34,750 nt of DNA from an uncultured virus (IMG/VR IMGVR_UViG_3300022833_000006) (taxonomy: Duplodnaviria; Heunggongvirae; Uroviricota; Caudoviricetes; Crassvirales), in the IMG/VR virus record IMGVR_UViG_3300022833_000006; one strand, written 5' to 3'. A program made the translations under genes and the position numbers. How positions within the stretch are numbered: the first letter of the stretch is position 1; each line of letters opens with the position of its first letter. The notes beneath the pieces were generated by a model. It saw only the letters and a list, made by a program, of their open reading frames with translations. It ran no database searches and had not been told where the DNA came from. This document shows, in pieces, positions 4,615 through 30,599 of this stretch.

Positions 4615-4945
4615 TATACCATTTAATAAATTTAATTACTGCTTTATACATTGTTTTAATATCTGTATAAATAAATTTACATATAACTCTATCCAATTGT
4701 TTATTGAAATCCTTATCTTTATCTAGTGTATCTAACCTTTCAATTTTTTGAATTATAGGCATTAACCAATCCCATGATTCATGAAATTTAAAATCATCTA
4801 GTCTAGCTTTATTTGTTTCATACATGTTACTATCTACAGCTAAATAAGGTCTATTGTGAGGAGTAGTATAAACTAATCCTTTTTTTTCCCAACCCATAAA
4901 TTCAGCAATTAACTTATTACCATTTAATACAAAATTCTTTTCCAT
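4592..4945 (-). CDS. Hypothetical phage protein (NKLIAEFMG...SWDWLMP type)
   Basis: ORF track; overlaps neighbours in operon fashion. Confidence 0.75.
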   Translation of the reverse strand: MEKNFVLNGNKLIAEFMGWEKKGLVYTTPHNRPYLAVDSNMYETNKARLDDFKFHESWDWLMPIIQKIERLDTLDKDKDFNKQLDRVICKFIYTDIKTMYKAVIKFIKWYNENNKSN

Positions 4946-5621
4946 TGTTTTCTTTTATTAATTCGTTAATTTGTTTAAAATGATTACAATTCCATTCTTC
5001 ATTTCGTTTTGCAGCAAGTTCAGGATGTATACATTTTAAAGCATAACAAAATTTTAATTTGTTTTCTGGAACAACTTTGTGAAAAGTTCTCATAACATCG
5101 TTTCCCCATAAACAAAATATTACACCTGGATTATTATCTATAATAGTATTAATAGTAACTTTAATAAATTCATCCCAAATATGCTTGTGTGGATTTACCA
5201 TACCTGCTTGAATAGTTAATGATGTATTTAACAATAAAACATTTTGTAAAGCCCAATTTTGCAAAGTTACATCAAAATCAACAATTAAAGTATTAGTAGT
5301 TTTTTCTATACATTCTCTTATTTTAAATAAAGAAGGTGACACCCTAAGTGTATCAACTGTATTTGCTACAGCAAAGCCGTTTGCTGATTCATTAGGGTAA
5401 GGAGAATCTCCTAATATCACCACTTTAATATTATTATAAGGGACATATCTAAAAACTTTAAATATATCTTTTTTTAAAGGAAATATTTGTCTTTTATTAT
5501 AAACTTGGTTTAAAAAAACAATAAGTTTTCTAAAATAATCTGATTTAATTATATATAGAAAACTTTCATCATTAACCCAGTTACCAAAAGTTTTTTTAAA
5601 ATTAATAATATCCTTATTCAT
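4917..5621 (-). CDS. ung: Uracil-DNA glycosylase family 1-like protein (variant active-site motif)
   Basis: KVVILGDSPYP, PSL, WALQNVLLLNTSLT, LWG, HP, CNHF motifs. Confidence 0.85.
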   Translation of the reverse strand: MNKDIINFKKTFGNWVNDESFLYIIKSDYFRKLIVFLNQVYNKRQIFPLKKDIFKVFRYVPYNNIKVVILGDSPYPNESANGFAVANTVDTLRVSPSLFKIRECIEKTTNTLIVDFDVTLQNWALQNVLLLNTSLTIQAGMVNPHKHIWDEFIKVTINTIIDNNPGVIFCLWGNDVMRTFHKVVPENKLKFCYALKCIHPELAAKRNEEWNCNHFKQINELIKENNGKEFCIKW

Positions 5622-7128
5622 CTACAGTATTTGTAAAATCATCATAAAATTTATGTTCATTAAGACCTTTAGGGTCATTAATATTCATTTTTTTCATAAC
5701 TTTAACTCTTTCTTTAAAATATTTTATATTATTTTCACAAAGAGAATCTGTAAGTTCTGGGAATTCACTTTTAGTAAGTTTTACTAATGTTTCATATTTA
5801 CTATTTAATTTACTAAAAGATTTTAAAAATTTAGGATTATTAAATTTATCTTCTAATTTGTTAGCTGCCATAACCATTATTGCTGAACTTAACATAAAAT
5901 TGTAAATTTTAAAAAAGTCAAAAGTATTATTATGTTGTCTAAATTCTACAGTTTGTTTGTTAGTAAATATAATAGGAATCATGTTAAACCATACGTAACG
6001 ACTTCTAATGTTCCATTTAGATGTACCATTAGGGTCTTTAGGATGATTTTGTATTTTTTCTAAATCATTACCAAAATCTGAAAATGAATATCCACCAGAT
6101 AAATGCTTAAATAAACTATCAAAAGCTAATTTTTTAAGTTTAGGTAAAGGTTTATCTGTGTCAGACATCATAATACTTAAAGGAGTACAATTCATTGGAC
6201 CACTGTAATTTTTATTTTTACCGTAATCAGTAGAAATTTTTTTAGACAATGGTTGTAAAGAATACATATCTTCTTCTAGCATATTTGCTATATTATTTAT
6301 AGATAAAATATTGTCAACATCTCTTTTAAGACCTCCTAAATGTAAATGTAAAGCACATGTAAAATCATAATCAGTTCTTTTTTTTAATAATTTACATATT
6401 TCCATTACATTATATAAACCTTTTCTACCATCTAAAGGAACTGTAACATATTCTAAACCTGATATACTACCATCTCTTAATGCTACTATACCGTGTTTAT
6501 AACACAATCTATCAGGTAAATAACCTTTTGAAGTTTCAAATTCAAGACCAAAAGTTATTTTATTTTTTTCTAATAAAATACCTAATTCTTCTACCATTTG
6601 ATTTTTAACACTAGGAACTTTGTAATACTGATTATATGATTTTTCAATCATTTTAGTTACAAATCTACTATCGTAGTTTAACGAATTTTTATCTACAGGT
6701 GCTTTTCCTATTTTATTAAAAGAAGATTTTGACATTTCATCTTTTTTATAAAAATTACCTGTATTTAAATGTTCAGAATACTTACTACCTAATGTTTCTT
6801 CATCTATACAATTAGTTACATTAAAATTGTCTACAACAACTTTTATGTTTTTAGTAGGATTAGGTGAAAAAAATCCTAATATAAAAGAATCATCTTTATT
6901 TATACTTACTATACCCCTTGTTAAAAGTTGTTTATTTACTAAAACGTAAGATTTATTTTCATGATCAAATTCAATAAGACCATTATTAAATCTATGATAT
7001 CTACCGTTTACTTTGTAACATCCACCACTTCCTTCTATGTTGTTATCACCTATTTCGTAATAATCATTTTGTATTTTACGACATTTACTTTTTTCTAAAT
7101 TCTTACCTTTGTAAGTTTTAACTATCAT
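5614..7128 (-). CDS. Putative amidoligase (COOH-NH2 ligase fold)
   Basis: TFGLEFET, DGSI..LEYVT.PL, CALHLHLG, RY.WFN, TVEFRQH motifs. Confidence 0.85.
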   Translation of the reverse strand: MIVKTYKGKNLEKSKCRKIQNDYYEIGDNNIEGSGGCYKVNGRYHRFNNGLIEFDHENKSYVLVNKQLLTRGIVSINKDDSFILGFFSPNPTKNIKVVVDNFNVTNCIDEETLGSKYSEHLNTGNFYKKDEMSKSSFNKIGKAPVDKNSLNYDSRFVTKMIEKSYNQYYKVPSVKNQMVEELGILLEKNKITFGLEFETSKGYLPDRLCYKHGIVALRDGSISGLEYVTVPLDGRKGLYNVMEICKLLKKRTDYDFTCALHLHLGGLKRDVDNILSINNIANMLEEDMYSLQPLSKKISTDYGKNKNYSGPMNCTPLSIMMSDTDKPLPKLKKLAFDSLFKHLSGGYSFSDFGNDLEKIQNHPKDPNGTSKWNIRSRYVWFNMIPIIFTNKQTVEFRQHNNTFDFFKIYNFMLSSAIMVMAANKLEDKFNNPKFLKSFSKLNSKYETLVKLTKSEFPELTDSLCENNIKYFKERVKVMKKMNINDPKGLNEHKFYDDFTNTVDE

Positions 7129-7154
7129 TTCATTTTATTTTTTTAATGTTAACT

Positions 7155-9275
7155 CTATTGGTTAAATTTGTTGTTTCTATTAATAAATTCCATTTCATCT
7201 TCATCAAAATATTCATCATCATCATTTTTTATTTCTTTTGAATTTAAAATATTATCAATCCATTTACTTAACGGATTATAAACACCTTCTAAATTTTCGC
7301 AAAAATTAAAAACATTAGTTGCTAATTCATTGTTATCAGAATATTTACTAACAAAATCTATTCCTAAATCTAAAGATTCTTTTATTGAAGTGTTAAAATC
7401 ATCTAATGCAACTTTCATGTCGTCATTTTCGTCTTCAAATTCGTCAACATTTGAATAATCTATACCTGATTCATAATCTTGAAAATCTTCTTCAAATTTA
7501 TTATTTTTATTAACAAGTTTATTTATATTTTTTTCAAAACTTTTGTCTTCAAAATAAGCATTGTCAATAACTTTTTTATTACTTAAAATTATTTTATTAT
7601 TTTTTATACTATTAAAAATATGATTATAAAAACTAGCAACACAAATACCTTTTCTTATACTATAAATATAAGTAGAACCTATTGCTTGTACAGATTCACT
7701 TTGTACTACTTTTCCTTTTCTTAAAATTTTATTTTTAAATAAATGAGCATTAAATTCTAATAAATCTTCTTTTTTATTTTTTAAAAATGAATTTTCATAA
7801 TAAGAAGTTATAGGATAAACACTCATGTGCGAATATTCTTCAAGAGTAAAGTTTTCTGATCCTTTATAATTAATAGTTTCATAATCTAATTCAGTAAGTA
7901 ACATAATACCATTAACTATGTAAAACAAAGTTAAATCAACTTTTCCTAAAACAATATTTTTAGAATTAACTTTATCAAAAAATGAAAAATTATTAATTAA
8001 ATTTTTAGCTTCATGTATTAAATTACTAACATATATAAAACCATTATTTTCACTATAAACATAAATACCATCTTTAACAAGCTCGTTGTTTTGTTTATAT
8101 CTAAAATTTTCAAAAATAACTTTATTATAATTAACCATTTCTTTGCTCCTAATTATTTTCTCATAAAAAATACTTTTTCCAATTTTACTTTCTAAAGGTG
8201 AAATAACATTTTGAATATCATTTGGTATTTTATTTGCACTAATAAATAATTTAGAATTAACAGGTGGTTGTTTTGATTTATAAACAACTAAATTTTTTAC
8301 TGATTTATTGTTATTTTTAGTTTTATCAACATTTTTTCTGTTTTTTTCTTCTTTTTTACGATTAAATTCATACATTGAATCGTATTTTTCATTTTTAGTT
8401 CTATCAATATTAAACAAAGCTTCAATTACACCATTTTTTATTTTATAAAGTATATTTGTTTCAAAAGTATATATATTAGAATCTTTTTCAGTATGTCTTT
8501 TACCTGATATAAGCTCTAAAGGAGCTACTGTAGAAGAATAATATATACTATTTTTAGATTCTTGCCAATAATGCAATGGTCTTTCTTCTTCAGCAACACT
8601 AGTATTATATTCCCATTTTTTAGATTTACCTCTAAATACAAAAACAGTTTCTTTTTCTTTTTGTGAATGTAAAACCAATGCAGCAGCACCTTTGTAATCT
8701 TGTAAAACTTTTATATAATCAGGTTTTTTTACATTAGCTTTAGATATTATTTCTAATAAAATTTCACTATCTACTTTTTCTCTATGTTTATCATCTTTAA
8801 GATTTACTTCATATTTTTCAGCTAAAAATTTGTGATTATCTAAAGTTCCGTTATGAGCACCTATAAAATTAAAACCATCACCAATATCAAACATAAAAGG
8901 ATGTGTATTATTTACACTTTTAATACCTCCTCTTGATGCATTTCTAGTGTGACCTATAATTACGTTACCTACTTTTTTTTTGTACTTTTGGATACTTTCA
9001 TTAATAAATAAATTTCTAAATAAAGCTTCATTGTTTGTACCAATACTGTCACCTTTATGTAATTTTTCATTTATATATAAACCACAAGAATTAGTACCTC
9101 TTTCTTCATTTAAAACACCTAATATTTTAAGTTTATCCATATCAAATGAAGATGGATTTTCACCAGTCCATCCAAATAATCCACAACTAAAAACATCTTT
9201 TTTTTGTGTTTTACTAAAAATGTTTAATAGCATTTGCATAATTAACATTATAATTACTATATTAAATATTAACAT
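7155..9275 (-). CDS. Class II glutamine amidotransferase (Ntn hydrolase) with leader and long C-terminal region
   Basis: CGLFG, RG.NSCG, IGHTRNAS, NTHPF, AHNGTL, VDSE, ERPL motifs. Confidence 0.88.
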   Translation of the reverse strand: MLIFNIVIIMLIMQMLLNIFSKTQKKDVFSCGLFGWTGENPSSFDMDKLKILGVLNEERGTNSCGLYINEKLHKGDSIGTNNEALFRNLFINESIQKYKKKVGNVIIGHTRNASRGGIKSVNNTHPFMFDIGDGFNFIGAHNGTLDNHKFLAEKYEVNLKDDKHREKVDSEILLEIISKANVKKPDYIKVLQDYKGAAALVLHSQKEKETVFVFRGKSKKWEYNTSVAEEERPLHYWQESKNSIYYSSTVAPLELISGKRHTEKDSNIYTFETNILYKIKNGVIEALFNIDRTKNEKYDSMYEFNRKKEEKNRKNVDKTKNNNKSVKNLVVYKSKQPPVNSKLFISANKIPNDIQNVISPLESKIGKSIFYEKIIRSKEMVNYNKVIFENFRYKQNNELVKDGIYVYSENNGFIYVSNLIHEAKNLINNFSFFDKVNSKNIVLGKVDLTLFYIVNGIMLLTELDYETINYKGSENFTLEEYSHMSVYPITSYYENSFLKNKKEDLLEFNAHLFKNKILRKGKVVQSESVQAIGSTYIYSIRKGICVASFYNHIFNSIKNNKIILSNKKVIDNAYFEDKSFEKNINKLVNKNNKFEEDFQDYESGIDYSNVDEFEDENDDMKVALDDFNTSIKESLDLGIDFVSKYSDNNELATNVFNFCENLEGVYNPLSKWIDNILNSKEIKNDDDEYFDEDEMEFINRNNKFNQ

Positions 9276-10089
9276 ATTCTTTTATTTTGTATTTTTCAAT
9301 TAATTCATTTACGTTTTCAATTTCTAAATCTGATTCAGGATTAATATAATTTAATATATCTTTTCTTAAATCTTCATTAGAAATTTCAAGTTCTTCTGCC
9401 ATTTTGACAGCCATAACGGAACGATCCCATACGTTTAATATACTATCATCACTTTTTAAAAAGTAACCACCTAAAGACCTACATTCTATTCCGTAATCTT
9501 TATCTCTACAATCCCCGATTTTACCATATAATGATCTGCGATTATGATCATCATTATCTTCTAATATTAAAGGTAATGATACAGCTAATTCAAACATCAT
9601 ACATAATCTATCTCTTTCATCTTCTGTTGGGTTGTCCCACCCATAATGAATGTGAAAACCAGAAGATCTCATAGTTAATTCTGATGTGTCTTCTTCTGCA
9701 ATATCTGAAGAACATTCAGTTATTGCGTTATAAGAAGGTGAACATCCAAAAACATGAGCTTTAGGATCAAGAAGTAATTCTTCAGTAGCAATTTCACTAC
9801 TTGAATAATGAAGTTCCATACCTAAAGGTGCTACAAACATTTCAATGTAAGATTTAGCATAATTTATTGAATTTAAAAATTCTTCTCTTGTTTTACAAGG
9901 TGGAATATTAAATTCAGCAAGTATATTATCTTCTTGAACAAAACAACCTGTTCCTATATCAAGAGGATCGTTTTTACCTGCATTAAAAACTCCAATAATA
10001 GAAGCTAATTCTTTAGTTTCAAAATCTCTAACAAATACTTCTGGATCAGATCCAATAGTAAGATTATTGTAATTATATTTATTATTCAT
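9262..10089 (-). CDS. phiEco32-like COOH-NH2 ligase type 2
   Basis: TIGSDPEVF, QEDNILAEFNIPP, FGCSPSYNA, RSSGFHIHYG, RRSLYGK.G..R.K.YGIECRSL. Confidence 0.9.
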   Translation of the reverse strand: MNNKYNYNNLTIGSDPEVFVRDFETKELASIIGVFNAGKNDPLDIGTGCFVQEDNILAEFNIPPCKTREEFLNSINYAKSYIEMFVAPLGMELHYSSSEIATEELLLDPKAHVFGCSPSYNAITECSSDIAEEDTSELTMRSSGFHIHYGWDNPTEDERDRLCMMFELAVSLPLILEDNDDHNRRSLYGKIGDCRDKDYGIECRSLGGYFLKSDDSILNVWDRSVMAVKMAEELEISNEDLRKDILNYINPESDLEIENVNELIEKYKIKEYVNI

Positions 10090-10090
10090 A

Positions 10091-10738
10091 TTATAGTAAT
10101 TTGTCTATTAAATTATAACAATAGTTTTTAAATTCTAATGTTGAATGATTAAACTCTGGATGTCCTTGTATAGCAAGGCTATTTGTATTTTTATAATACA
10201 CTATTTCACACTCTTTAAAATTTTTATCTAATAAAATTTCTTGATCATTACCATTAAGATATTTTTCAGATAAAATATCTTGAGAAATTCCTATTATATC
10301 ATAATTATCTTTATTAAGATTAAATGGATACATCATTTGATGATGGGTAGAAGTTACTTCAAAAATATTATTTTCAATATCAACAACATTGTGACTTCTA
10401 CTGTGACCAGTAATATGTTGTATTAATTTACCACCACTCATTACAGTTAAAAACTGTGAACCTCTACATATACCAACTTTTAATACATGAGGAGCTAAAG
10501 AATTAAATGCTTCTTCTTCTAACGTATCTCTTTTAGCGTTAATATAAGTATTAGAACCTAATTGTTCATCATAATAAATAGGGTTAACATCTTCTCCACC
10601 AGTAAATAAAGCAATGCTTATATCTTCTTCAGAAGAATCTTCTGTTATTACAATTTCATATTTATTACTAAAAAATTCTAAATATTGATTAGTAAGATAT
10701 GCATATAATGTAAATATTTTAATTTTTTCTTTTTTCAT
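10091..10738 (-). CDS. Class I glutamine amidotransferase-like / peptidase C26 family
   Basis: FTGGEDVNP..Y, RD..E, GICRGSQ, STHHQMM, QGHPE. Confidence 0.9.
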   Translation of the reverse strand: MKKEKIKIFTLYAYLTNQYLEFFSNKYEIVITEDSSEEDISIALFTGGEDVNPIYYDEQLGSNTYINAKRDTLEEEAFNSLAPHVLKVGICRGSQFLTVMSGGKLIQHITGHSRSHNVVDIENNIFEVTSTHHQMMYPFNLNKDNYDIIGISQDILSEKYLNGNDQEILLDKNFKECEIVYYKNTNSLAIQGHPEFNHSTLEFKNYCYNLIDKLL

Positions 10739-11489
10739 TTTCTATTCTATTTAATAATGTGTTAATAATTCCAATTGCAACAAATGGGTTAAATCTTTCT
10801 TCTGGGTGAGATTGTTCTGCAGCAATAGGTAATTCTTTGTGAATCATAAATTCTATATTTTTATGTTTGACATCATAAGCTAATGGTAAAAAATCATTAG
10901 ATAAATTGTCTATAAAAATAGCTTGATGATGTATAGAATTTGTTTTAAATTTTCGTGGAACATTATTTACATAATTTAATCTATCTTTTTTAGAAGAAAT
11001 AAGTATTTCACCTAAATAATCTTTTGGAAAATTATCAATAACTGTTTCTAAATCATCTACTAATTCACCTCTCCAAGTAGTAGATCTATCATTGTGAACA
11101 TGTTGATTTAAACTTCCACCAAAGTGGACATTTAAATTTTGAAAACCTGCACAAATACCATAAATTGCTGTTTTATTTTGTTTAGCACGTTCAATATACC
11201 CATTAATAGCACCAAGATTTACATCATAAAATGATTCATATTCCATATCAGGATTATCAGTCATATAATGTGGTTTTTGACCATATCGTAAAGGATTAAC
11301 GTCACGTCCACCTGGTAATATTAATAAATCTACTGGTAATATAGTTTCATTTGCAGCATCTATTATAACTACATCTGCATCAAAACTTCTTGCAAAGTGT
11401 ACGTAAGCTGCATTTTGACCATAACCTGGTTGATATTTACCAGTATGATTATGACCTAATATTCCAATTAACGTTTTTGTTTTTGACAT
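10719..11489 (-). CDS. Class I glutamine amidotransferase-like / peptidase C26 family (second copy)
   Basis: LPGGRDVNPLRYG, GICAGFQ.LNV.FGG, NSIHHQA, QSHPE. Confidence 0.9.
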   Translation of the reverse strand: MSKTKTLIGILGHNHTGKYQPGYGQNAAYVHFARSFDADVVIIDAANETILPVDLLILPGGRDVNPLRYGQKPHYMTDNPDMEYESFYDVNLGAINGYIERAKQNKTAIYGICAGFQNLNVHFGGSLNQHVHNDRSTTWRGELVDDLETVIDNFPKDYLGEILISSKKDRLNYVNNVPRKFKTNSIHHQAIFIDNLSNDFLPLAYDVKHKNIEFMIHKELPIAAEQSHPEERFNPFVAIGIINTLLNRIENEKRKN

Positions 11490-11491
11490 TT

Positions 11492-12376
11492 TTATTTATT
11501 TAAAGTTTTATATTTATTTTTAAGCATTACTGGTATATGTTTAATATAAGTTTCTTCTGTTATATCTCCAAATGATGGAGCAGAATTAATTTCTACAATA
11601 ATAAAATCTGGATTTTCATTAATATTACCATTTCTATCTGTAGAACTTTGTATTCTAAGATCAATTGCACCAAAATCTAAACCTGTTGAATTAAGAGCTT
11701 TTACGCATTCATCAATTATAGATTGCCAATTACTAGGCTTATCAAAAGCTTCGTTATTTTCAAGAATCCATACACAATTATCATCATTTCTATACCACTT
11801 ATTTTCTTCAGGAGTATCTCTTTTCATCATTTTACGACAAGTATAAAAACATCCATTTGCATCAACGTGAAGTCTATATTCTCTTGAGTAATTATAATAA
11901 CGTTCAAAAATGCGATTTTCTAAATTGACACCTGAACGTAAATAATTTCTAATTTCATCAATAGTTTTAAGTAAAGTATTACCTTGACCTCTACTACCAT
12001 ATAATGATTTAGCAACTAATGGTAATGGCATATCTTCTAAAGAAACTGTTATTATTTCAGCTTTTGTTTGCAATAAAAAATTATTATTATCATTACTACA
12101 TCTATACCAATCTGCTGATTTAACACTTGGTTGTGCGTTTTGAAAACAATTTTTCATGCGAAGTTTACTACTACTATTACGAATTGCATCAACAGTATTT
12201 AATTCTAATCTATCACCTCCATTTGCAATAGTGTCTTTACATTCAGTACTAGAACCTAATCTTACTACTGAACGAAATGGTAATAATTCAATTGTCTTAT
12301 TATTTCTTCTAAGATTAGTGTGAGAAGGATGCCTACTGTATATTACAGGACGAAATTTTGTATATTTATTTTTCAT
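11492..12376 (-). CDS. ATP-grasp ligase (RimK/YheC-like)
   Basis: PLVAK...GSRGQG, REYRLHV, GLDFGAID, IVEINSAPS. Confidence 0.9.
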   Translation of the reverse strand: MKNKYTKFRPVIYSRHPSHTNLRRNNKTIELLPFRSVVRLGSSTECKDTIANGGDRLELNTVDAIRNSSSKLRMKNCFQNAQPSVKSADWYRCSNDNNNFLLQTKAEIITVSLEDMPLPLVAKSLYGSRGQGNTLLKTIDEIRNYLRSGVNLENRIFERYYNYSREYRLHVDANGCFYTCRKMMKRDTPEENKWYRNDDNCVWILENNEAFDKPSNWQSIIDECVKALNSTGLDFGAIDLRIQSSTDRNGNINENPDFIIVEINSAPSFGDITEETYIKHIPVMLKNKYKTLNK

Positions 12377-12842
12377 TATATTTTTTATAATATTTGTTTA
12401 AATTTTCTAAATTTGCAAATTTGTGTTTAAAACCAGTTTGTTCAATTCTTTCCGCTGAATGCCATGATGTACTACCTATTCTTTTTAAAAAAGGAAAATT
12501 TTCATCTTTATCTGTTGACACACTACTATTAAAAACTATACCTGATACATGAAAACAATACCATAAATTAATAGCTGTTTCTTCACAATCAACTAAACTA
12601 AAAACTATACTTAAATAACGTTTCCAAGTTAAAGATGTATATTCAGTTTTAAGAATACAATAAACTTCATAAATAGTTCTATATTTACTTCTGCGACATT
12701 GAATTTCTGTAAATTTTTTATCGTTATAAGTATTAGGTCTATTTTTTAAAAGATCAATTATATAAGATTTAGCAGATTTTCTTCTTTTAGAACGAGAATA
12801 TATTAATTTAGTTTCTATAATCGGCATAATCTCCAGATTCAA
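12366..12842 (-). CDS. Hypothetical protein
   Basis: ORF track; overlaps both neighbours in the operon. Confidence 0.65.
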   Translation of the reverse strand: MNLEIMPIIETKLIYSRSKRRKSAKSYIIDLLKNRPNTYNDKKFTEIQCRRSKYRTIYEVYCILKTEYTSLTWKRYLSIVFSLVDCEETAINLWYCFHVSGIVFNSSVSTDKDENFPFLKRIGSTSWHSAERIEQTGFKHKFANLENLNKYYKKYNEK

Positions 12843-13194
12843 TTAATGTTTTACCTTCGTTTTCACCAAAGTAAATAGAAGCTTTTACATCTTCTCCTGT
12901 ATCAAGAGTTATTTCAATAGGTGTTCTTTTATACCAAGAACCTTCATGATCTCTAGGATCATAACCTTCTAATCTATCTACTGTAGGTAATTGATCAGGT
13001 GTAACTGAATAAACTTCTACTCTAATTTTACTAACTTGCTCGTTAGGATTAACAAAAGGAATACCATTTGCTGTCAATTTATATTTATTTTTAGTCCATC
13101 CAGCACCAATTAATTTTGAATTACCCAATACTCTGTGATTTCCATAACCAGTTCTTAATGTTCCGTAAACACTAATGTTTATATTTTTACTCAT
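12808..13194 (-). CDS. Gamma-glutamylcyclotransferase (AIG2-like)
   Basis: VYGTLRTGYGNH, EVY.V, DRLEGY, Y.R, SGDY. Confidence 0.92.
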   Translation of the reverse strand: MSKNINISVYGTLRTGYGNHRVLGNSKLIGAGWTKNKYKLTANGIPFVNPNEQVSKIRVEVYSVTPDQLPTVDRLEGYDPRDHEGSWYKRTPIEITLDTGEDVKASIYFGENEGKTLIESGDYADYRN

Positions 13195-14224
13195 CTTTTT
13201 TATTTATTTTAGAATTTAATATTTCTTTTGCTAAATCTTTACCATGATTATTAACTAAATCAGAAAAATCCTTAGATTTATATTCTTTATTTATTACTAT
13301 ATTAGTAATCATATGATTTCTAGATATTTCTTTGGCGTTTATTTGACCCCAGTTTTCTTTTTTATCATAATCATTATCAAATAATATAAAAATTTTAGTA
13401 AATCTACCTTTTAATTGTTCAATTATATTATCTTTTGGTTTAGCTTTTTCATTTTGTAAAGCTATTGCATCATAACCTGTTGTACTTTTTATAGACATTA
13501 CATCTTTAAGTGATTTTGTTATGATTAAAATGTTACCATTTAAAGAAAGTTGTTCCCAACCTTGCCATACTGAATTATCATTGTCTGTTATCCATTTAAA
13601 TTTACTATAAGGTTGATATATCTTATGTGTTATTAAACCATCTTTACTTTCTATATAAACATATGCATTTTTATCTGCTGCTATAGGTTTATTATTTATA
13701 AAAATATATTTTAATGGAAAAACTCTGTATTTTATTAACATAACTTTATTTATGTTAAATTTATTCCAATAATTTAAATCGTGAACTTCCCAAATTCTTT
13801 TGTTTACTGATATTTTACATTTCTTTTTTTTAAGTATTTGTATGTTAGCGTCATACTTTACTTTATTTTTATTTTCATTGTTTAATAAATTATTACTACA
13901 TTTGTACTTTTTATCTAAATTAAAATCAATTGCAATTTGACTGTAAACATCATACCATTGTGAATATGCAAAAAATTCTTTTACGAATTTATAACAATCA
14001 CCACCTCCATTTACAAAATCATTATATATAATATTACCTCTTTTATTTAAAAAAAAACCAAACGATGGTGTTGGATCTTCTCTTAGAGGTGAACTCATAG
14101 CTGAATTTAAGTTAATACTATCAGTATTCATGTAAAAACAATATATTTCACTGTCTTTTAATTCTATATCTAATACCGCTTTAGTTACTAATGGTTTAGA
14201 TACGTGTTTATTTAAATCTACCAT
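13187..14224 (-). CDS. dnaG: DNA primase (TOPRIM, crAss-like type)
   Basis: SPLREDPTPSF N-terminal region, KIYQP, ITKSLKDVM, FDND, KDFSD. Confidence 0.85.
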   Translation of the reverse strand: MVDLNKHVSKPLVTKAVLDIELKDSEIYCFYMNTDSINLNSAMSSPLREDPTPSFGFFLNKRGNIIYNDFVNGGGDCYKFVKEFFAYSQWYDVYSQIAIDFNLDKKYKCSNNLLNNENKNKVKYDANIQILKKKKCKISVNKRIWEVHDLNYWNKFNINKVMLIKYRVFPLKYIFINNKPIAADKNAYVYIESKDGLITHKIYQPYSKFKWITDNDNSVWQGWEQLSLNGNILIITKSLKDVMSIKSTTGYDAIALQNEKAKPKDNIIEQLKGRFTKIFILFDNDYDKKENWGQINAKEISRNHMITNIVINKEYKSKDFSDLVNNHGKDLAKEILNSKINKKDE

Positions 14225-14237
14225 TTTTGTTTTTAAT

Positions 14238-14260
14238 AAAAAAGAGGGGTTTCCCCCTCT
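14238..14260 (-). terminator. Rho-independent terminator after the SSB-like gene
   Basis: Minus strand AGAGGGG-GAAA-CCCCTCT followed by a T run. Confidence 0.88.
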
Positions 14261-14274
14261 ATATTTATGACCTA

Positions 14275-14886
14275 CTAGAAAAAATCATTACTAGCTTCGT
14301 CTTTAGAGTCAGTAGACTCTGTGTCAAAAGCATCGTCATCATTATCTGGCTGAGGTCTAGACATTAAGTCATTATACATTAACTTATTTGCGTCTGTGCT
14401 TTTAGCTGGTTTTAATCTAGTTGTATTTTCATCTTTGTTAAAAGGTTCTACAAAATTAATTTTTCTAACAGTTAAAAAACTCTTAGGATAACCTTGTGTT
14501 CCATAATTAACAAATACATTTACTTTATGTCCTTTTTTACCTGCTTCGTTAATTTTCTTCATTAGAAAATCTACAGCTGCTGGGTAATTAGGAAGAGTTG
14601 GTAAAGCTACACCTATAGATTCTGCATCTACAGCGTGTAACGTTGTAACAAGCCTTTGTAATACAAAAGCTGGGTTGTTATCTGAATCTTGAGGGTAATA
14701 AATACCATCGTTTACATCAGAACCATTTTCTTGTGTGTAATGTATTTTATAATCAGGTGCATTGGCATTGTCTTCTGCACTTTTTTTCTTAACAGAAATT
14801 GCTACATTATTTACTTTACCTGCATTACCTTCGTTAAAAATTACTACATCAGAACCATTGTCTGAAAAACTATTTAAATCAATCAT
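14275..14886 (-). CDS. Putative single-stranded DNA-binding protein
   Basis: Acidic tail ending NDFF; position between Sak4-like ATPase and primase. Confidence 0.6.
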   Translation of the reverse strand: MIDLNSFSDNGSDVVIFNEGNAGKVNNVAISVKKKSAEDNANAPDYKIHYTQENGSDVNDGIYYPQDSDNNPAFVLQRLVTTLHAVDAESIGVALPTLPNYPAAVDFLMKKINEAGKKGHKVNVFVNYGTQGYPKSFLTVRKINFVEPFNKDENTTRLKPAKSTDANKLMYNDLMSRPQPDNDDDAFDTESTDSKDEASNDFF

Positions 14887-14904
14887 TATTTTTATATATA
14901 TAAA

Positions 14905-14927
14905 TTAAGTTGACATTGTTGACTTAT
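14905..14927 (-). promoter_or_regulatory. 23-nt repeated leader motif, copy 1
   Basis: Plus strand TTAAGTTGACATTGTTGACTTAT; 22/23 identical to 15636-15658 and at nearly the same distance from the ATG. Confidence 0.65.
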
Positions 14928-14943
14928 ACATACAAACTAATAA

Positions 14944-15618
14944 TTACTCATAATAGTCTCTAATTACTTTATTTACTTCTACAAGATCATTTTCAACATG
15001 TTCTTCTTGAAACATATCCATTGGTGTCTTGCAAGTATCTGTAGCATCGTTTTGTGTTCTAAACAAATATCTAGCTGGTTTTCCTGGCTCTTTTTTTACA
15101 TCTGTAAATAACACCATACTACTAAAGCTTTCAGGGCTTAATTTAGCTAATTGCTTACCTTGAACTGCAATTCTTTGATTTAAGGTTCCCATATCATCAT
15201 ATATTTTTTCTGGATGACAAAAAAAATAAACAATAATGTCGTCACGCATGGTATCATTAACAAAATTAATCAATTTGTATTGATTTCTTGCCATGTTAGC
15301 CCATGCTTGCATACCATTCTTAGCATTGTTAAATTCATTGCTCATGACAGAATCTGTCATAATACGAGACCATGTATCTACAATTACAGTTTTAATGCTT
15401 TCATTAGCGTTAGCTTCAGAAAGTGATTTAACCACATCTTTTATATTACTAGACTGCATATAATTTCCTTTTTCTTGATTATAAACGTCTTTGTACTTTC
15501 TAAAAGGTAGTGCTTTTTGATCCGTATTAATGATTACGGTTTCATCAGGATTTAATTTCCTGAGACTTGTTGATTTACCAGTACCTGATTCACCAACTAT
15601 AAATACTAAATGTGCCAT
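14944..15618 (-). CDS. AAA_24 / Sak4-like P-loop ATPase (recombination)
   Basis: Walker A GESGTGKSTS, KALPF, Walker B VIVD, TCKTPMDMF, ENDL. Confidence 0.85.
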   Translation of the reverse strand: MAHLVFIVGESGTGKSTSLRKLNPDETVIINTDQKALPFRKYKDVYNQEKGNYMQSSNIKDVVKSLSEANANESIKTVIVDTWSRIMTDSVMSNEFNNAKNGMQAWANMARNQYKLINFVNDTMRDDIIVYFFCHPEKIYDDMGTLNQRIAVQGKQLAKLSPESFSSMVLFTDVKKEPGKPARYLFRTQNDATDTCKTPMDMFQEEHVENDLVEVNKVIRDYYE

Positions 15619-15635
15619 ATATTTAAATTAATAAG

Positions 15636-15658
15636 TTAAGTTGACACTGTTGACTTAT
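15636..15658 (-). promoter_or_regulatory. 23-nt repeated leader motif, copy 2
   Basis: Plus strand TTAAGTTGACACTGTTGACTTAT upstream of the ATPase ATG. Confidence 0.65.
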
Positions 15659-15662
15659 TTAA

Positions 15663-15797
15663 TTAAATAGTTCTAAATCTACGTTTAGCATTCCAAAATA
15701 CTCTTTTACTGTTTCCAACAATAGAATATTTACTTACTTTTTCATTTAAAGTATCTCTTACAGTGTTTAATTGACTGCTATTTTTATTTTGATTCAT
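15663..15797 (-). CDS. Small hypothetical protein (44 aa)
   Basis: MNQNKNSSQLNTVRDTLNEKVSKYSIVGNSKRVFWNAKRRFRTI; manual translation only. Confidence 0.45.
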   Translation of the reverse strand: MNQNKNSSQLNTVRDTLNEKVSKYSIVGNSKRVFWNAKRRFRTI

Positions 15798-15815
15798 TAT
15801 TCTAAAATTAATTTA

Positions 15816-15823
15816 CAAATATA
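15816..15823 (-). promoter_or_regulatory. Possible Bacteroidota -7 promoter element
   Basis: Minus strand TATATTTG matches TAnnTTTG; no clear TTG at -33. Confidence 0.35.
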
Positions 15824-15914
15824 AAAAGAAACTGTTAAAGATGTTAAAAACATTATAATAAGAATACTACTTAAAAGTATAATTTCTAAAAATGTTAATC
15901 TATTTTTTTTCATA

Positions 15915-16994
15915 TTATTTGTTATAAGCTAGCATTTCTGCTTTTATAGATGGGTATGATTCGTAATCTAATAACATAAGATCTTTAATTTCTATATTAT
16001 TATTATTAATATATTTTAATCCATCTATTAATTCAGCTTGTGCTTTAGTACTAATAGTTAAATCACAATTATTATATTTATTAACATCTCTAGATAACTG
16101 TTCTTTAACAGCATCTATATGTGCTTCATAAATATGTACATTAGACAAATCTCCAATAATACCTTTAGGTATCATATTAGTCATTTTACCAATTAGCTTT
16201 GCTAATAATGCATAACTTGCAATATTAAAAGGTAAACCTAAGAATGTATCAACTGAACGTTGATGCCATTTTAAAGTAAATTGGTATTTAGGTGTATCTA
16301 AAGAATTATAATATTCCATATCTAATTCTTTACTACATTTGCCATTTTTAATAGCTTTTACATTTAATTTTTGTTTAATATGATCAGAAGGTTTAACTAA
16401 ACCAGTTCTTTCAAACCAATTTAAAGGTTCAACTAATATTTCAAAACTCCAATGACAAGGTGGTAAAGCCATATCATCTAACTCAGCAGGATTCCAAGCT
16501 GTAACTATGTGCTTTGTACCCATAGGTGTTTCTTTTAATCCTTTTATAAGATTGGATATTTGATCTAAACCTCCTGGATTATTATCTGAAATAAACCAAT
16601 TTCTCCATTGAGCACCATATACTCTACCTAAATCTAAATTCCAACTGTCTGGGTTTTTAAATATTTCTTTAATAGTTGGAGTTTCCCCTTCAGATATAGA
16701 ATAATTTTTAATTAACCAGTTATAAGCATCTTTATTCCAAATATTAATACCATTATCTACAAGATATTTAATATTAGTATCACCACGTAAAAACCATAAT
16801 AATTCTCCAACAACTCCTTTCCAATATAACTTTTTAGTAGTTATTGCGGGAAAACCATCATCAAAATTGTGTACCAACGTGTAACTTGGTATCTGATACC
16901 TAAATACATTCTTGCGATTAGGATCTTCATATCTGAAACCTTCATTTCTTATTTTTTGCAATAATTTGTGATATTCAATATCTATTTTTGCCAT
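15915..16994 (-). CDS. thyA: Thymidylate synthase
   Basis: FPAITTKK, ELLWFLRG, LGRVYGAQWR, AWNP, LPPCH, QRSVDTFLGLPFNIASY, HIY. Confidence 0.97.
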   Translation of the reverse strand: MAKIDIEYHKLLQKIRNEGFRYEDPNRKNVFRYQIPSYTLVHNFDDGFPAITTKKLYWKGVVGELLWFLRGDTNIKYLVDNGINIWNKDAYNWLIKNYSISEGETPTIKEIFKNPDSWNLDLGRVYGAQWRNWFISDNNPGGLDQISNLIKGLKETPMGTKHIVTAWNPAELDDMALPPCHWSFEILVEPLNWFERTGLVKPSDHIKQKLNVKAIKNGKCSKELDMEYYNSLDTPKYQFTLKWHQRSVDTFLGLPFNIASYALLAKLIGKMTNMIPKGIIGDLSNVHIYEAHIDAVKEQLSRDVNKYNNCDLTISTKAQAELIDGLKYINNNNIEIKDLMLLDYESYPSIKAEMLAYNK

Positions 16995-21627: not shown

Positions 21628-23556
21628 TTAATTTTTAATTACGTTAATAATTTTATTAACTTCTCTTAAATAATAGTTATAATCTATATTATAATTATCA
21701 TTGTTGTAATACTGATTAAAAACTGTTGTTTTATAACCAGCTTCAATACTTGATTCTCTATCACCCATATCTATCTCACCAAATATGTTTATTTGTAATG
21801 TAGGTATTTTATCAGGCAATGGTGGTAACTTTTTAACAAGCATTTCACCATCGTTAGAAACGAAATATCTAGTTACCTTACCTAATTCATGATCTTCTGG
21901 CTCATAGTCTTTTACAATCCTTTCAACGAGTTTATTATCACCTGTCATCTTTACACCTAAGCAAAAATCGTGAATACCGTAGTTTTCACAAAAAGTATAA
22001 TTCTCTGATGTTGAATGATTTGACAAATGATTATAAATAGTATCTTCAGGACTAACATTGTTTGCAAAATAATTAGCTAAAGCAATAGCTACAATTCTTT
22101 TACTATGATTTTTGTTATAATCCCTATCCATTTCAAAAGCACCTTTGTATTTAGTATAACCTGTATCAGTAATACTCATGTAATTATTAACATCTCGTAT
22201 TATCATTTTGTCATAAACAGCATATTCCATTACAAGATTAGTTTTATTTTCCCAGGATGTAACTATCTTTTTCATGTAATCTACATCAGTTCTCTTTATA
22301 ATAAAAGTAAAACCGTCAGTGTTTGATTGCAAAAATGTAATATCATTAACATGTTTAAATATTTTCTCCATAAGCATAGCTAAAAGTAATTGACCATTAA
22401 GAGTAATACTTAACAGACATTTGGGATCATACAAAAAACTATACATATCATTCATTTTACCAAATGAACCATTGAGCATTAATTTACAAGCTGCATTACG
22501 TGGATCTGATTTAGGAAATGTCTTTCTTAATTCATATATACTTTTATAAATTTTACTAAAAGCTTCTCCTAAGTGTTTTGGTCTAAATTCATTGTTAATA
22601 GCTAAGTTAGGATAGTAACTTGCTACGTCAATGTCTATGATTACATGAGTTTTATCACTTACATACACTCCAGGTTTAGTACAACCATGTATACCACCTT
22701 GACCAAAATCATTAATAATGTTACCTATCTTACCACTAAATTTAAATTCACCTTTAGTATCTTTTGATACATATGATTTAAAATTAAAAAGAACTTTTTG
22801 CATTTCTTTTGAATCAAACTTAATATAGTCAAGTATTATATCATTAAATATAACTGATTTTCTATAAGTTCTTTTCTCTGATAATTCTTTCTTTTTAATA
22901 TTCATTTCTTTAGATAATAAATCTAAGAATATTTCACTACCAATTTTAGGGTCATTAGCATTTATTAAATTTAAACCATATTCCTCAGATAACTGAAGCC
23001 TTAGCTCAATTTCTTTTTGACATTTGTTATAAAATAAATGTGTAGCATTTACATCATGGTCACAATAAGATATTATTTCAGACATCATGTCTTTTGTAAG
23101 ATCACTGTCTGGTGGATAAGGAAGATCACGTATATTATCCATTCTCATGGCATATTCAAGCCATTTAAGAGACGTTCTACGTGCTTTGTTATCGTAATGT
23201 TTAATCCTAAAAAGATCTACTTGAGATATCTTAACTTGATTATCCCATATTGCAGAATAATCAGCTTGTATTACATTTTGTGCTTCATTGTATATCTCTT
23301 CAGATGTTCATTTTCTTTTAACTTTAAGTATAGTGTTATGTAAGACTGGGTAGTCAAAATTAACATTATTATAACCTATTAAAGTCATGTTTCTTTGATT
23401 AAGAAACTCGTAAAGTTTTACTATGTCTGTTTTGTATTTGTTAATTTCAAATCTTCAAAACTCATTAGTTTCTATATTCTTAAACACAGCAAGAAATAAA
23501 TCTTTATATGTTTCTAAATCGTATATGTAAGTTTTGTTACTTCATTGTTTTTTCAT
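21628..23556 (-). CDS. polB: Family B DNA polymerase; true start 23556 (642 aa), three in-frame TGA=Trp
   Basis: Extension holds Exo I YDLET and Exo II GYNNVNFD; then YCDHDV, DVASYYPN, KLMLNGSFGK, NTDG. TGA at 23544-23542, 23457-23455 and 23310-23308. Confidence 0.95.
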
Positions 23557-23594
23557 ATTTTTTATTTTTATAAAGTCTAACAAAAAGTTCGTGA

Positions 23595-25081: not shown

Positions 25082-25233
25082 ATATTCATACTGGATTTGA
25101 ACCAGTGTCTTCTTGTGATTCACTATTATCTATAATAAATTAAATCTAGCAACTTTAAATAAAAAAGTTCCTTATAGTAATCATTGGTAGCGTTATTTGA
25201 TACAAGTACTCTACCTGACTGAGCTAATGAATA
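25082..25233 (-). tRNA. tRNA-like RNA with an 85-nt insert replacing the anticodon loop; identity undetermined
   Basis: Acceptor TATTCAT/ATGAATA, D arm GCTC-AGTCAGGTA-GAGT, anticodon stem CTTGT/ACAAG, variable loop AAGAC, T arm ACTGG-TTCAAAT-CCAGT, all canonically spaced. Confidence 0.75.
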
Positions 25234-25411
25234 TTTATTTTATTTTTTATTTAGATAAAAGCTCACATAATATATGCAAGCCTTATCAATTGCAATGTAC
25301 TACACTTTTGATACATAACCTTTCCCAAATCTATAAAAGTGTTAAAAACTTTGGATGATGTTATATTTGCCAGATATCCTGCTGGCGCAGCTTTTTAGAC
25401 GGCGAAGTCTG

Positions 25412-25855
25412 TGGAGCTGAGGGGAGTCGAACCCCTGTCCCAACAATTTGATTATTAATAAATTATACAGTTTTTCAATTTATAGTTTTCTTCTACACTA
25501 GTTACTCATACTAAATTAACTTATCATACAGCTTCACTATACTAATGTACTTCGGGTCTATCTGGACATACCAGAATATCAAGCATCCTGTGATAAGTTA
25601 CTACATAATGGTTACTACGATGCTTTTTTCACCATTGGCATTATGCTGCCATTGCTAACTTAACTGTTGCAACTGGTGCAACTAGATCGTCAGATCCGTT
25701 AAGAATGTTGTGAACAACACTCATGTTAGCTACTTCCTGTGCAGTTTCCTGCGTACTCATTGTATTTCCGTTTAGAAATTTCACCTACGATATTTAAAGT
25801 GATCACTCACTACTGTTTATTAATATTTACACTGCGGTCAAAACCAGTCAGCCCC
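25412..25855 (-). ncRNA. ssrA: tmRNA
   Basis: 5' GGGGCTGACTGGTTTTGAC, 3' GGACAGGGGTTCGACTCCCCTCAGCTCCA; acceptor with G3-U70 and discriminator A; internal tag frame ending LAMAA*. Confidence 0.95.
25641..25769 (-). other. tmRNA tag reading frame, 42 aa
   Basis: TAAAC|GGA resume context; GNTMSTQETAQEVANMSVVHNILNGSDDLVAPVATVKLAMAA-TAA. Confidence 0.75.
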
Positions 25856-30240: not shown

Positions 30241-30331
30241 AATAAACTATCATGTAAGTATATCCTGATTAAACTTACACTACGCGGATTTCAGGAGTAG
30301 TCCTTATTGCAATTGGATGATAGTTTATTAT
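30241..30331 (-). ncRNA. Unknown structured RNA motif, copy A
   Basis: 13-bp closing stem AATAAACTATCAT/ATGATAGTTTATT; inner TCCTGA/TCAGGA pairing. Confidence 0.6.
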
Positions 30332-30478
30332 TTACTGCTTGTTATCCTTCTACATCAGCACAATATCTTTTCTGATTGTGTCACCTATTTTACGGATGAT
30401 TTTATGTAGCTCTAGCTTTCTATTTATTTAAGGGATGTCAGCTTTCCCCACACTAGCCCAGTGGTTTTTATATAAATA

Positions 30479-30599
30479 AATAAAATGCAGTGGACTTGAA
30501 CCACTATTAATAAGTCATTATTAGCTGCCTATGGCATCATACACTAATATATATTCACGGATTGCTTATTAACCTTGCCCATTCTAAAGACATTTTATT
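30479..30599 (-). ncRNA. tRNA-like RNA (D/T-arm mimic with expanded central arm)
   Basis: Closing stem AATAAAATG/CATTTTATT, D-like hairpin with GG loop, TTAATAAG/CTTATTAA arm, T arm AGTGG-TTCAAGT-CCACT. Confidence 0.6.

Follow-up and report, generated by a model that had tools for sequence, protein, structure and literature searches.

A crAss-like phage tRNA gene with a proposed intron in its anticodon loop

The window analysed here, a 34,750-nt stretch of phage DNA with a GC content of 25.6%, carries on its minus strand (25233-25082) a whole tRNA cloverleaf whose anticodon stem, CTTGT/ACAAG, holds 85 nt instead of 7. Can such a gene give rise to a working tRNA, and might this tRNA be the reader of the TGA codons that interrupt genes of the same phage? 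The phage is also represented by G001, which is 99.996% identical over window positions 1-28449 and which, in the part that adjoins the window, encodes muzzle, cargo and tail-ring domains of the Crassvirus type. A related genome, G002, encodes a Crassvirus capsid protein. Among named viruses, Cellulophaga phage phi14:2 (Crassvirales, Steigviridae) is the closest, with 46% polymerase identity.

The tRNA body and its neighbourhood

The split gene consists of two tRNA halves and the stretch between them:

25202..25233, minus strand: 5′ half of the tRNA, positions 1-31 (acceptor 5′ strand, U8 A9, D arm, A26 and CTTGT); identified with ARAGORN, Rfam and the pairs kept in the orthologue
25117..25201, minus strand: 85 nt between the strands of the anticodon stem; identified with ARAGORN, introns on; no conservation, no excess structure and no BHB motif
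25082..25116, minus strand: 3′ half of the tRNA (ACAAG, variable loop AAGAC, T arm, acceptor 3′ strand and discriminator T); identified with ARAGORN, Rfam and the pairs kept in the orthologue

The acceptor stem (TATTCAT/ATGAATA) is followed by U8 A9 and the D arm (GCTC-AGTCAGGTA-GAGT) by A26; the variable loop has 5 nt, and the T arm is ACTGG-TTCAAAT-CCAGT. An eighth acceptor pair (-1:73) is possible. The nucleotides for tertiary contacts (U8, A14, G15:C48, G18 G19, G53 and the T loop UUCAAAU) can be read in the sequence and are intact. CCA is not encoded, and a run of Ts follows the 3′ half. The first-pass annotation of this locus had described a canonical body with a T discriminator and no CCA, an 85-nt loop at 25201-25117 between CTTGT and ACAAG, and a loop start ATCAAA that gives CAA in register and TCA one base off; all of this was confirmed.

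Running ARAGORN with introns on, as that annotation had proposed, resulted in a call of tRNA-Leu(caa), c[25081,25234], in which an intron of 78 nt follows position 37. In this canonical reading the 85 nt consist of loop positions 32-37 (ATCAAA, 25201-25196), the 78-nt intron (25195-25118) and C38 (25117). Rfam RF00005 matches the gene over the full model with 40.6 bits (gathering score 29, E 7.7e-07) and an 81-nt insertion in the anticodon loop. By score the gene is a member of this family, as is its orthologue in G002 (46.6 bits); at the gene level the anticodon loop has 85 nt and not the 7 nt expected for the tRNA family. The body is that of a real tRNA. ARAGORN with default settings and the Rfam scan of the whole window at the gathering score missed it and reported only the neighbouring tmRNA. 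Two elements lie upstream of the tRNA:

25267..25295, minus strand: sigma-70-like promoter candidate TTGCAA-17-TATTAT with 9 of 12 matches, about 33 nt upstream of the tRNA
25409..25855, minus strand: phage tmRNA with the tag ATVKLAMAA (ARAGORN, Rfam), 175 nt upstream of the tRNA; a tmRNA is also present in phi14:2

The promoter candidate falls in an intergenic block that can be aligned with the orthologue; sigma-70-like sites are no commoner in this AT-rich DNA than in shuffled sequences. The sequence ATTGCAATT was considered as a phage promoter motif and discarded, since it is not enriched (4 matches against 1.5 expected; 8 of 100 shuffles have at least as many).

A second, weaker tRNA-like element is located in a 1.6-kb ORF-free stretch of the window (30480-30597, minus strand). 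It has a perfect T arm (AGTGG-TTCAAGT-CCACT), an acceptor stem AAAATGT/GCATTTT, a 5-bp stem ATAAG/CTTAT around approximately 50 nt and a poor D arm. ARAGORN reports it only at 85% thresholds, no Rfam tRNA match was obtained at E<=10, and no counterpart is present in G002 or phi14:2. Close to it, a non-coding block (30325-30449, minus strand) is 79.5% identical over 127 nt to phi14:2 99828-99945 (E 9e-23) and absent from G002; judged from this similarity, it may be a conserved RNA or regulatory region. The tmRNA-like gene of G002 (L014:3383-3770) was called by neither ARAGORN nor Rfam. It keeps the acceptor strands; inspected by eye, its tag frame ends in ..LAMVA and its T arm is missing. Further along the window, a minus-strand cluster (4917-13194) comprises genes for an amidoligase, a COOH-NH2 ligase, three glutamine-amidotransferase-like proteins, an ATP-grasp protein (RimK-like) and a gamma-glutamyl cyclotransferase, which we take to be a predicted peptide or metabolite modification system.

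The orthologue and the insert

G002 is a complete relative (terminal repeats, 100,482 bp) with a polymerase that is 76% identical. Its orthologue of the split tRNA, which sits in L014, occupies the same place, after the tmRNA-like gene. All 22 cloverleaf pairs form in both orthologues. Eight of them differ on both sides (four in the acceptor stem including -1:73, three in the anticodon stem and one in the T stem), and there are no broken pairs and no one-sided changes; altogether, 16 of 16 stem substitutions are compensated. This degree of pair conservation, determined with two distinct orthologue sequences (n=2), was matched by 3 of 500 shuffles; when the register is slid, pairing is only 21-50%. 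The two genes do not differ in the D arm or the T loop. Comparison of the two genes thus indicates that the body is under clear selection.

The inserts have similar lengths (85 nt here, 77 nt in L014) and are found at the same site. They cannot be aligned with each other, as 116 of 500 shuffles score as well. Both open with A U N N A A U A, and A32 U33 NN A36 A37 are kept. The canonical anticodons differ, with CAA here and AGA in L014, as do the discriminators, U here and C in L014. The insert alone folds at -9.6 kcal/mol compared to a shuffle mean of -8.3 (z -0.54; 50 of 200 shuffles are as good), and with the anticodon stem added z becomes -0.89, which 36 of 200 shuffles equal. The L014 insert is likewise unstructured (z -0.48). 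The whole 152 nt reach z -2.44, but with a fold that breaks the cloverleaf. The internal pairings on which the insert had been annotated as structured do exist; a structure beyond chance is not seen. If the anticodon stem is enforced, both RNAs form a helix of 3 bp in which bases from loop positions 33-36 pair with the insert's 3′ end, and a 3-nt bulge at the 3′ junction. The register of this helix differs by one between the orthologues, and such small helices are expected by chance. As far as two orthologues can tell, the insert evolves like a spacer.

Searches with exact and gapped patterns in viral, metagenome and genome contigs found only this phage and L014/G002; two close polymerase relatives (L013 and L015) stop short of the tRNA locus. 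It had been proposed to look for an uninterrupted allele in relatives, which would fix the insertion point. None was found in the viral contigs searched, and phi14:2 does not have the gene. The D-arm/T-loop pattern also matched alphaproteobacterial YrlA (Y RNA-like) arrays in L045 and L054.

Several known types of insert were compared with the one found here. Group I introns also interrupt anticodon loops in bacterial-type systems, and this lineage has homing-endonuclease-associated introns in protein genes. Group I introns are approximately 250-500 nt long according to the available text of PMC10964413, and the 78-nt insert is far shorter. It has no Intron_gpI match at E<=10, and in G002 none reaches the gathering score, which agrees with the earlier view that the insert is too short for a group I intron. 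The Rfam scan of the locus yielded no family besides tRNA at E<=10.

Archaeal and eukaryal BHB introns (EndA/TSEN and RtcB) share the 37/38 site with the insert, and the predicted 3-bp anticodon-intron helix and 3-nt 3′ bulge resemble them. We excised every strict hBHBh′ candidate in silico and searched the product again with ARAGORN, introns off, a test that supersedes a raw BHB scanner, which was too permissive. Seven of eight Bathyarchaeia-type control tRNAs were restored, several at normal size. In contrast, no candidate here restores a normal tRNA: the window gave only an abnormal 95-nt call that retains part of the insert, and L014 gave none. Among the phage ORFs scanned, none showed an EndA or RtcB domain. 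BHB systems differ also in that the host here is bacterial, which follows from the phage tmRNA and from the cultured relative, which infects Cellulophaga.

YrlA/Y RNAs (RF02553) and tmRNA resemble the locus in having a tRNA-like module in a larger RNA, and a tmRNA is encoded next to it. The locus differs in that the RNA ends form the acceptor stem, the D arm is complete and G3:U70 is missing. RF02553 gave no match at E<=10; the same model detects the real arrays in L045 and L054 (82.3 bits for L054). A mini tmRNA or coding insert appears unlikely, given the missing G3:U70 and open frames that, compared by eye, lie at different relative positions in the two inserts. A guide or antisense RNA or a multi-copy element was rejected: the inserts are neither repeated in nor complementary to this phage or G002, and their best non-self matches in both genomes are only 12-17 nt long. 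Direct repeats at the borders (AUCA here, UAGA in L014; seen by eye) were not taken as splice sites, since excision there would leave a 3-nt loop.

Unusual tRNA genes were also observed in other phages. In phi14:2 (L062), an unannotated 92-nt class-II tRNA-like gene with the anticodon CAA is located at 1759-1851 after a terminator-like hairpin; it is called by ARAGORN at the 95% threshold, has a sub-cut-off Rfam tRNA-Sec score of 21.5 bits and shows two mismatches in the anticodon stem. The nearest complete outgroup, G003, which uses the standard code, encodes an unrelated tRNA body with an 18-nt anticodon loop (81647-81730; Rfam tRNA, 42 bits). Two unrelated viral contigs (L093:216-328 and L039:1491-1633) have tRNA genes with anticodon-loop inserts of 44-65 nt; in L039 no BHB restored a tRNA in the excise-and-recall test. 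In three related viral contigs (L036, L038 and L040), which are probably from archaeal viruses, ARAGORN calls tRNA-Met(cat) once two introns of the BHB type, one of 30-32 nt and one of 21 nt, have been excised. Intron-bearing tRNAs of the Bathyarchaeia type were found on contigs labelled as bacterial MAGs (L048 and L052), probably a case of mis-binning.

Protein genes split by inserts are present in both relatives, at 55479-57855 and 58395-62143 in G002 and at 9636-12081 and 12994-16674 in phi14:2. In G002, an I-TevI-like GIY-YIG gene interrupts the gene for thymidylate synthase. The gene for the DnaB-like helicase is split by about 2.7 kb in G002 and phi14:2 and contiguous in the window, and the phi14:2 polymerase is annotated as two joined pieces.

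Possible functions of the split gene

The reading that we tentatively prefer is a functional phage tRNA gene with a 78-nt AU-rich insert of the intron type, which would be removed by some route and would be akin to the introns of Lak phages. The compensated cloverleaf, the canonical site, the conserved U33 and A37 and an insert that is conserved in length only together form the pattern of an intron that is removed from a working tRNA. An intron-containing tRNA, as suggested in the first-pass annotation, is therefore the reading that the selected body, the 37/38 site and the spacer-like insert support best; from this pattern we infer splicing itself. The precursor would probably have a promoter of its own, located after the phage tmRNA. 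In this precursor the insert would follow one nucleotide 3′ of the anticodon, and it would probably be excised by proteins, namely host or unrecognised phage RNases and a ligase, and not by self-splicing or an archaeal-type endonuclease. With splice points at 37/38 the product would be a 74-nt class-I tRNA with the anticodon CAA, for which ARAGORN predicts leucine.

The available text of Devoto et al. (2019; PMC6784885) describes "enigmatic" introns of 23-141 nt at about position 37/38 in tRNAs of Lak megaphages, which have approximately 26% GC and an alternative code. The insert reported here is similarly short and AU-rich, is located at or near 37/38, has no known splicing route and is missed by bacterial tRNA finders. 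Both its length (the range is tens to about 140 nt) and its place at 37/38 in a phage tRNA that is otherwise normal agree with the Lak type, and it matches no Rfam intron family. Differences are also apparent. The Lak example in Table S6 of that paper has a T-arm-like, mini-tRNA-like element, whereas the inserts here and in L014 have none: neither contains a TTC triplet and thus, on reading the sequences, neither has a T-loop. Lak introns are described there as near-identical across Lak cohorts, unlike the two inserts compared here. Furthermore, the gene reported here is the sole clear tRNA gene of a marine crAss-like virus of about 100 kb, in which TGA and not TAG is reassigned. This kind of insert has been reported once before in phages, and the Lak introns are the only published precedent. 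Our literature search found no paper that explains how they are removed and none that pairs tRNA introns with Crassvirales.

Several observations do not fit well with an intron. No excision enzyme or motif is visible in the Rfam, BHB and domain scans. RNA ligase, RtcB, polynucleotide kinase, EndA, aaRS and release-factor domains were not found among the ORFs scanned, which were 52 ORFs of this phage against Pfam (window ORFs named by PHROGs were outside the Pfam re-scan) and 84 of the 109 G002 ORFs of at least 60 aa (the 25 omitted are giant virion ORFs and orthologues of annotated genes). The body is class I, but CAA and AGA would make it a tRNA for Leu or Ser, and bacterial tRNA-Leu and tRNA-Ser have long variable arms. 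Anticodon and discriminator differ between the orthologues, which is odd for a decoder. The codon TTG is rare (4.9 per 1000 in a crude ORF set), and codon usage in this set, which also over-counts TGA, does not decide between a CAA and a GAA reading.

These weak points also feed the main rival explanation, which we consider doubtful: the RNA of about 150 nt would work as it is, as an unspliced tRNA look-alike, via its acceptor/T/D body and a rigid anticodon stem. The floppy insert would leave such an RNA inert in decoding. It might be a decoy or competitor for a host enzyme or a defence nuclease that recognises the tRNA body, or might carry an aminoacyl group independently of an anticodon. The lack of splicing machinery and motif in our scans fits this explanation, as does an anticodon and discriminator free to vary between orthologues in an RNA for which no cognate identity fits; tRNA bodies with oversized anticodon loops are also present in related phages (the 18-nt loop of G003 and the weak second element in the window). 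However, a decoy for an anticodon nuclease would need an intact anticodon loop, and the conserved A32 U33 .. A36 A37 as well as the three compensated anticodon-stem pairs fit a true anticodon arm better. In addition, a functional insert should conserve sequence or structure, and neither is seen. The nuclease decoy or tRNA mimic that had been proposed for this locus is thus retained as the main rival; calling it a new class goes too far, since short phage tRNA introns were published in 2019 (PMC6784885, available text).

It is improbable that a once-normal phage tRNA was broken by junk DNA and is now functionless: an insert without conserved sequence or structure, in a lineage rich in mobile introns and homing endonucleases, would be expected in this case, but all stem substitutions are compensated with no pair broken, and two phages with only 76% polymerase identity keep the insert at the same site and similar in length. 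A recent, non-conserved insertion in a decaying tRNA, which had been named as the outcome that would speak against a functional gene, is likewise disfavoured, as the relative keeps the insert site and all 22 pairs, although not the insert sequence.

TGA recoding and the split tRNA

The tRNA gene is followed on the same strand by genes with in-frame TGA codons, for example:

21628..23583, minus strand: DNA polymerase with in-frame TGA at codons 14, 43 and 92, one of the downstream same-strand genes in which TGA corresponds to Trp

Read-through of TGA is required in the genes for the polymerase (three codons), the DnaB-like helicase (two), the SNF2 helicase (three), both RNR subunits, MazG and others. 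Thirteen TGA sites could be aligned to phi14:2, where 8 are TGG and the others encode Tyr (two), Ile, Gln and Leu; 8 of the 13 are also TGA in G002. Among 115 homologues, the residue aligned with polymerase codon 92 is W in 60, L in 37 and Y in 7. TGA terminates none of the table-11 ORFs of at least 150 aa in this phage (0/42) or in G002 (0/61). In the outgroups it terminates 8/61 ORFs in phi14:2 and 6/56, 11/61 and 12/54 in three more distant complete relatives. This phage has 15 TGA compared to 160 TGG codons, and the virion block (12 ORFs) has 0 compared to 60. The sense TGAs are found mostly early within genes and are confined to replication and nucleotide-metabolism genes (window 3-23583, minus strand). 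The alignment of TGA with TGG, the lack of TGA terminators and the TGAs in replication genes indicate that the code of this subclade is code-4-like, with TGA fully reassigned to Trp and the recoding located in replication genes. In gut crAss-like phages, as described in the available text of PMC7886860, recoding affects late genes; the clade studied here shows the reverse pattern.

Is the split tRNA the reader of UGA? Processing or modification that cannot be predicted from the sequence, or an indirect effect such as RF2 interference, could allow UGA to be read as Trp, an explanation that we rate as very unlikely. Its attraction comes from the context: the clade reads TGA as Trp and never as stop, the split gene heads the TGA-bearing module, and phi14:2 lacks both the tRNA gene and the recoding. 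The complete and recoded G002 has no other tRNA, even with introns of up to 3 kb or lowered thresholds, and ARAGORN called no other tRNA in the window and G001 (73 kb; about 27 kb of the phage lie outside). A search for a hidden suppressor with introns of up to 3 kb and thresholds of 70-90% gave only noise, with 34-50 calls per genome, including the non-recoded phi14:2. A G002 call of SeC(tca) at 39-135 was rejected as a suppressor, because its stems are mismatched. Yutin et al. (2021) describe recoded crAss-like phages in which no suppressor could be detected, and propose that highly divergent suppressors exist there (PMC7886860, available text). The tRNA(UCA) suppressors of TGA-to-Trp crAss-like phages described there resemble the locus in that TGA is read as Trp and the tRNA gene lies beside the recoded block; they differ from it in that no UCA can be obtained here and in that replication genes, not late genes, are recoded.

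The anticodons argue against this role. No single excision that leaves a loop of 7, 8 or 9 nt places UCA at 34-36, and L014 never gives a loop containing UCA. With 7-nt loops, GAA or CAA is available here and CUU, AUU, AGU or AGA in L014. G002 needs UGA decoding equally, so a shared decoder should share its anticodon; the orthologues never do. Bacterial TrpRS uses G73, and the discriminator is U or C here. The body has no specific likeness to tRNA-Trp. A comparison with the 29 tRNAs that ARAGORN finds in G003-G005 with introns off was uninformative (best matches 45/67 and 48/67). With no shared anticodon, no UCA, a body that is not Trp-like and a U or C discriminator, we give a UGA-decoding function little credence. 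Moreover, the co-occurrence of the split tRNA and the recoding is a single evolutionary event, and a decoder encoded by the host is equally possible. The suppressor role on which the first-pass annotation had speculated has therefore circumstantial support from the reading of TGA as Trp and from the lack of other tRNA calls, and fails on the anticodon, as no single excision yields UCA in register here or any UCA loop in L014.

With only a slim chance, the split tRNA could still be the "extremely divergent suppressor" postulated by Yutin et al., acting via non-contiguous processing, editing, anticodon modification or an action on termination. If this were true, tRNA processing would switch on the TGA-bearing replication genes. 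Full reassignment of TGA to Trp in a clade without a detectable UCA tRNA sharpens the question that phage recoding raises, namely the identity of the UGA reader.

Short phage tRNA introns were published in 2019 without a mechanism (PMC6784885, available text), and the split tRNA is a compact and unusually clean case. It is the sole clear tRNA gene in a phage of about 100 kb, and its orthologue reveals a selected body and a drifting insert. Since the lineage has a relative in culture, Cellulophaga phage phi14:2, and hosts from a tractable group, splicing could be tested directly.
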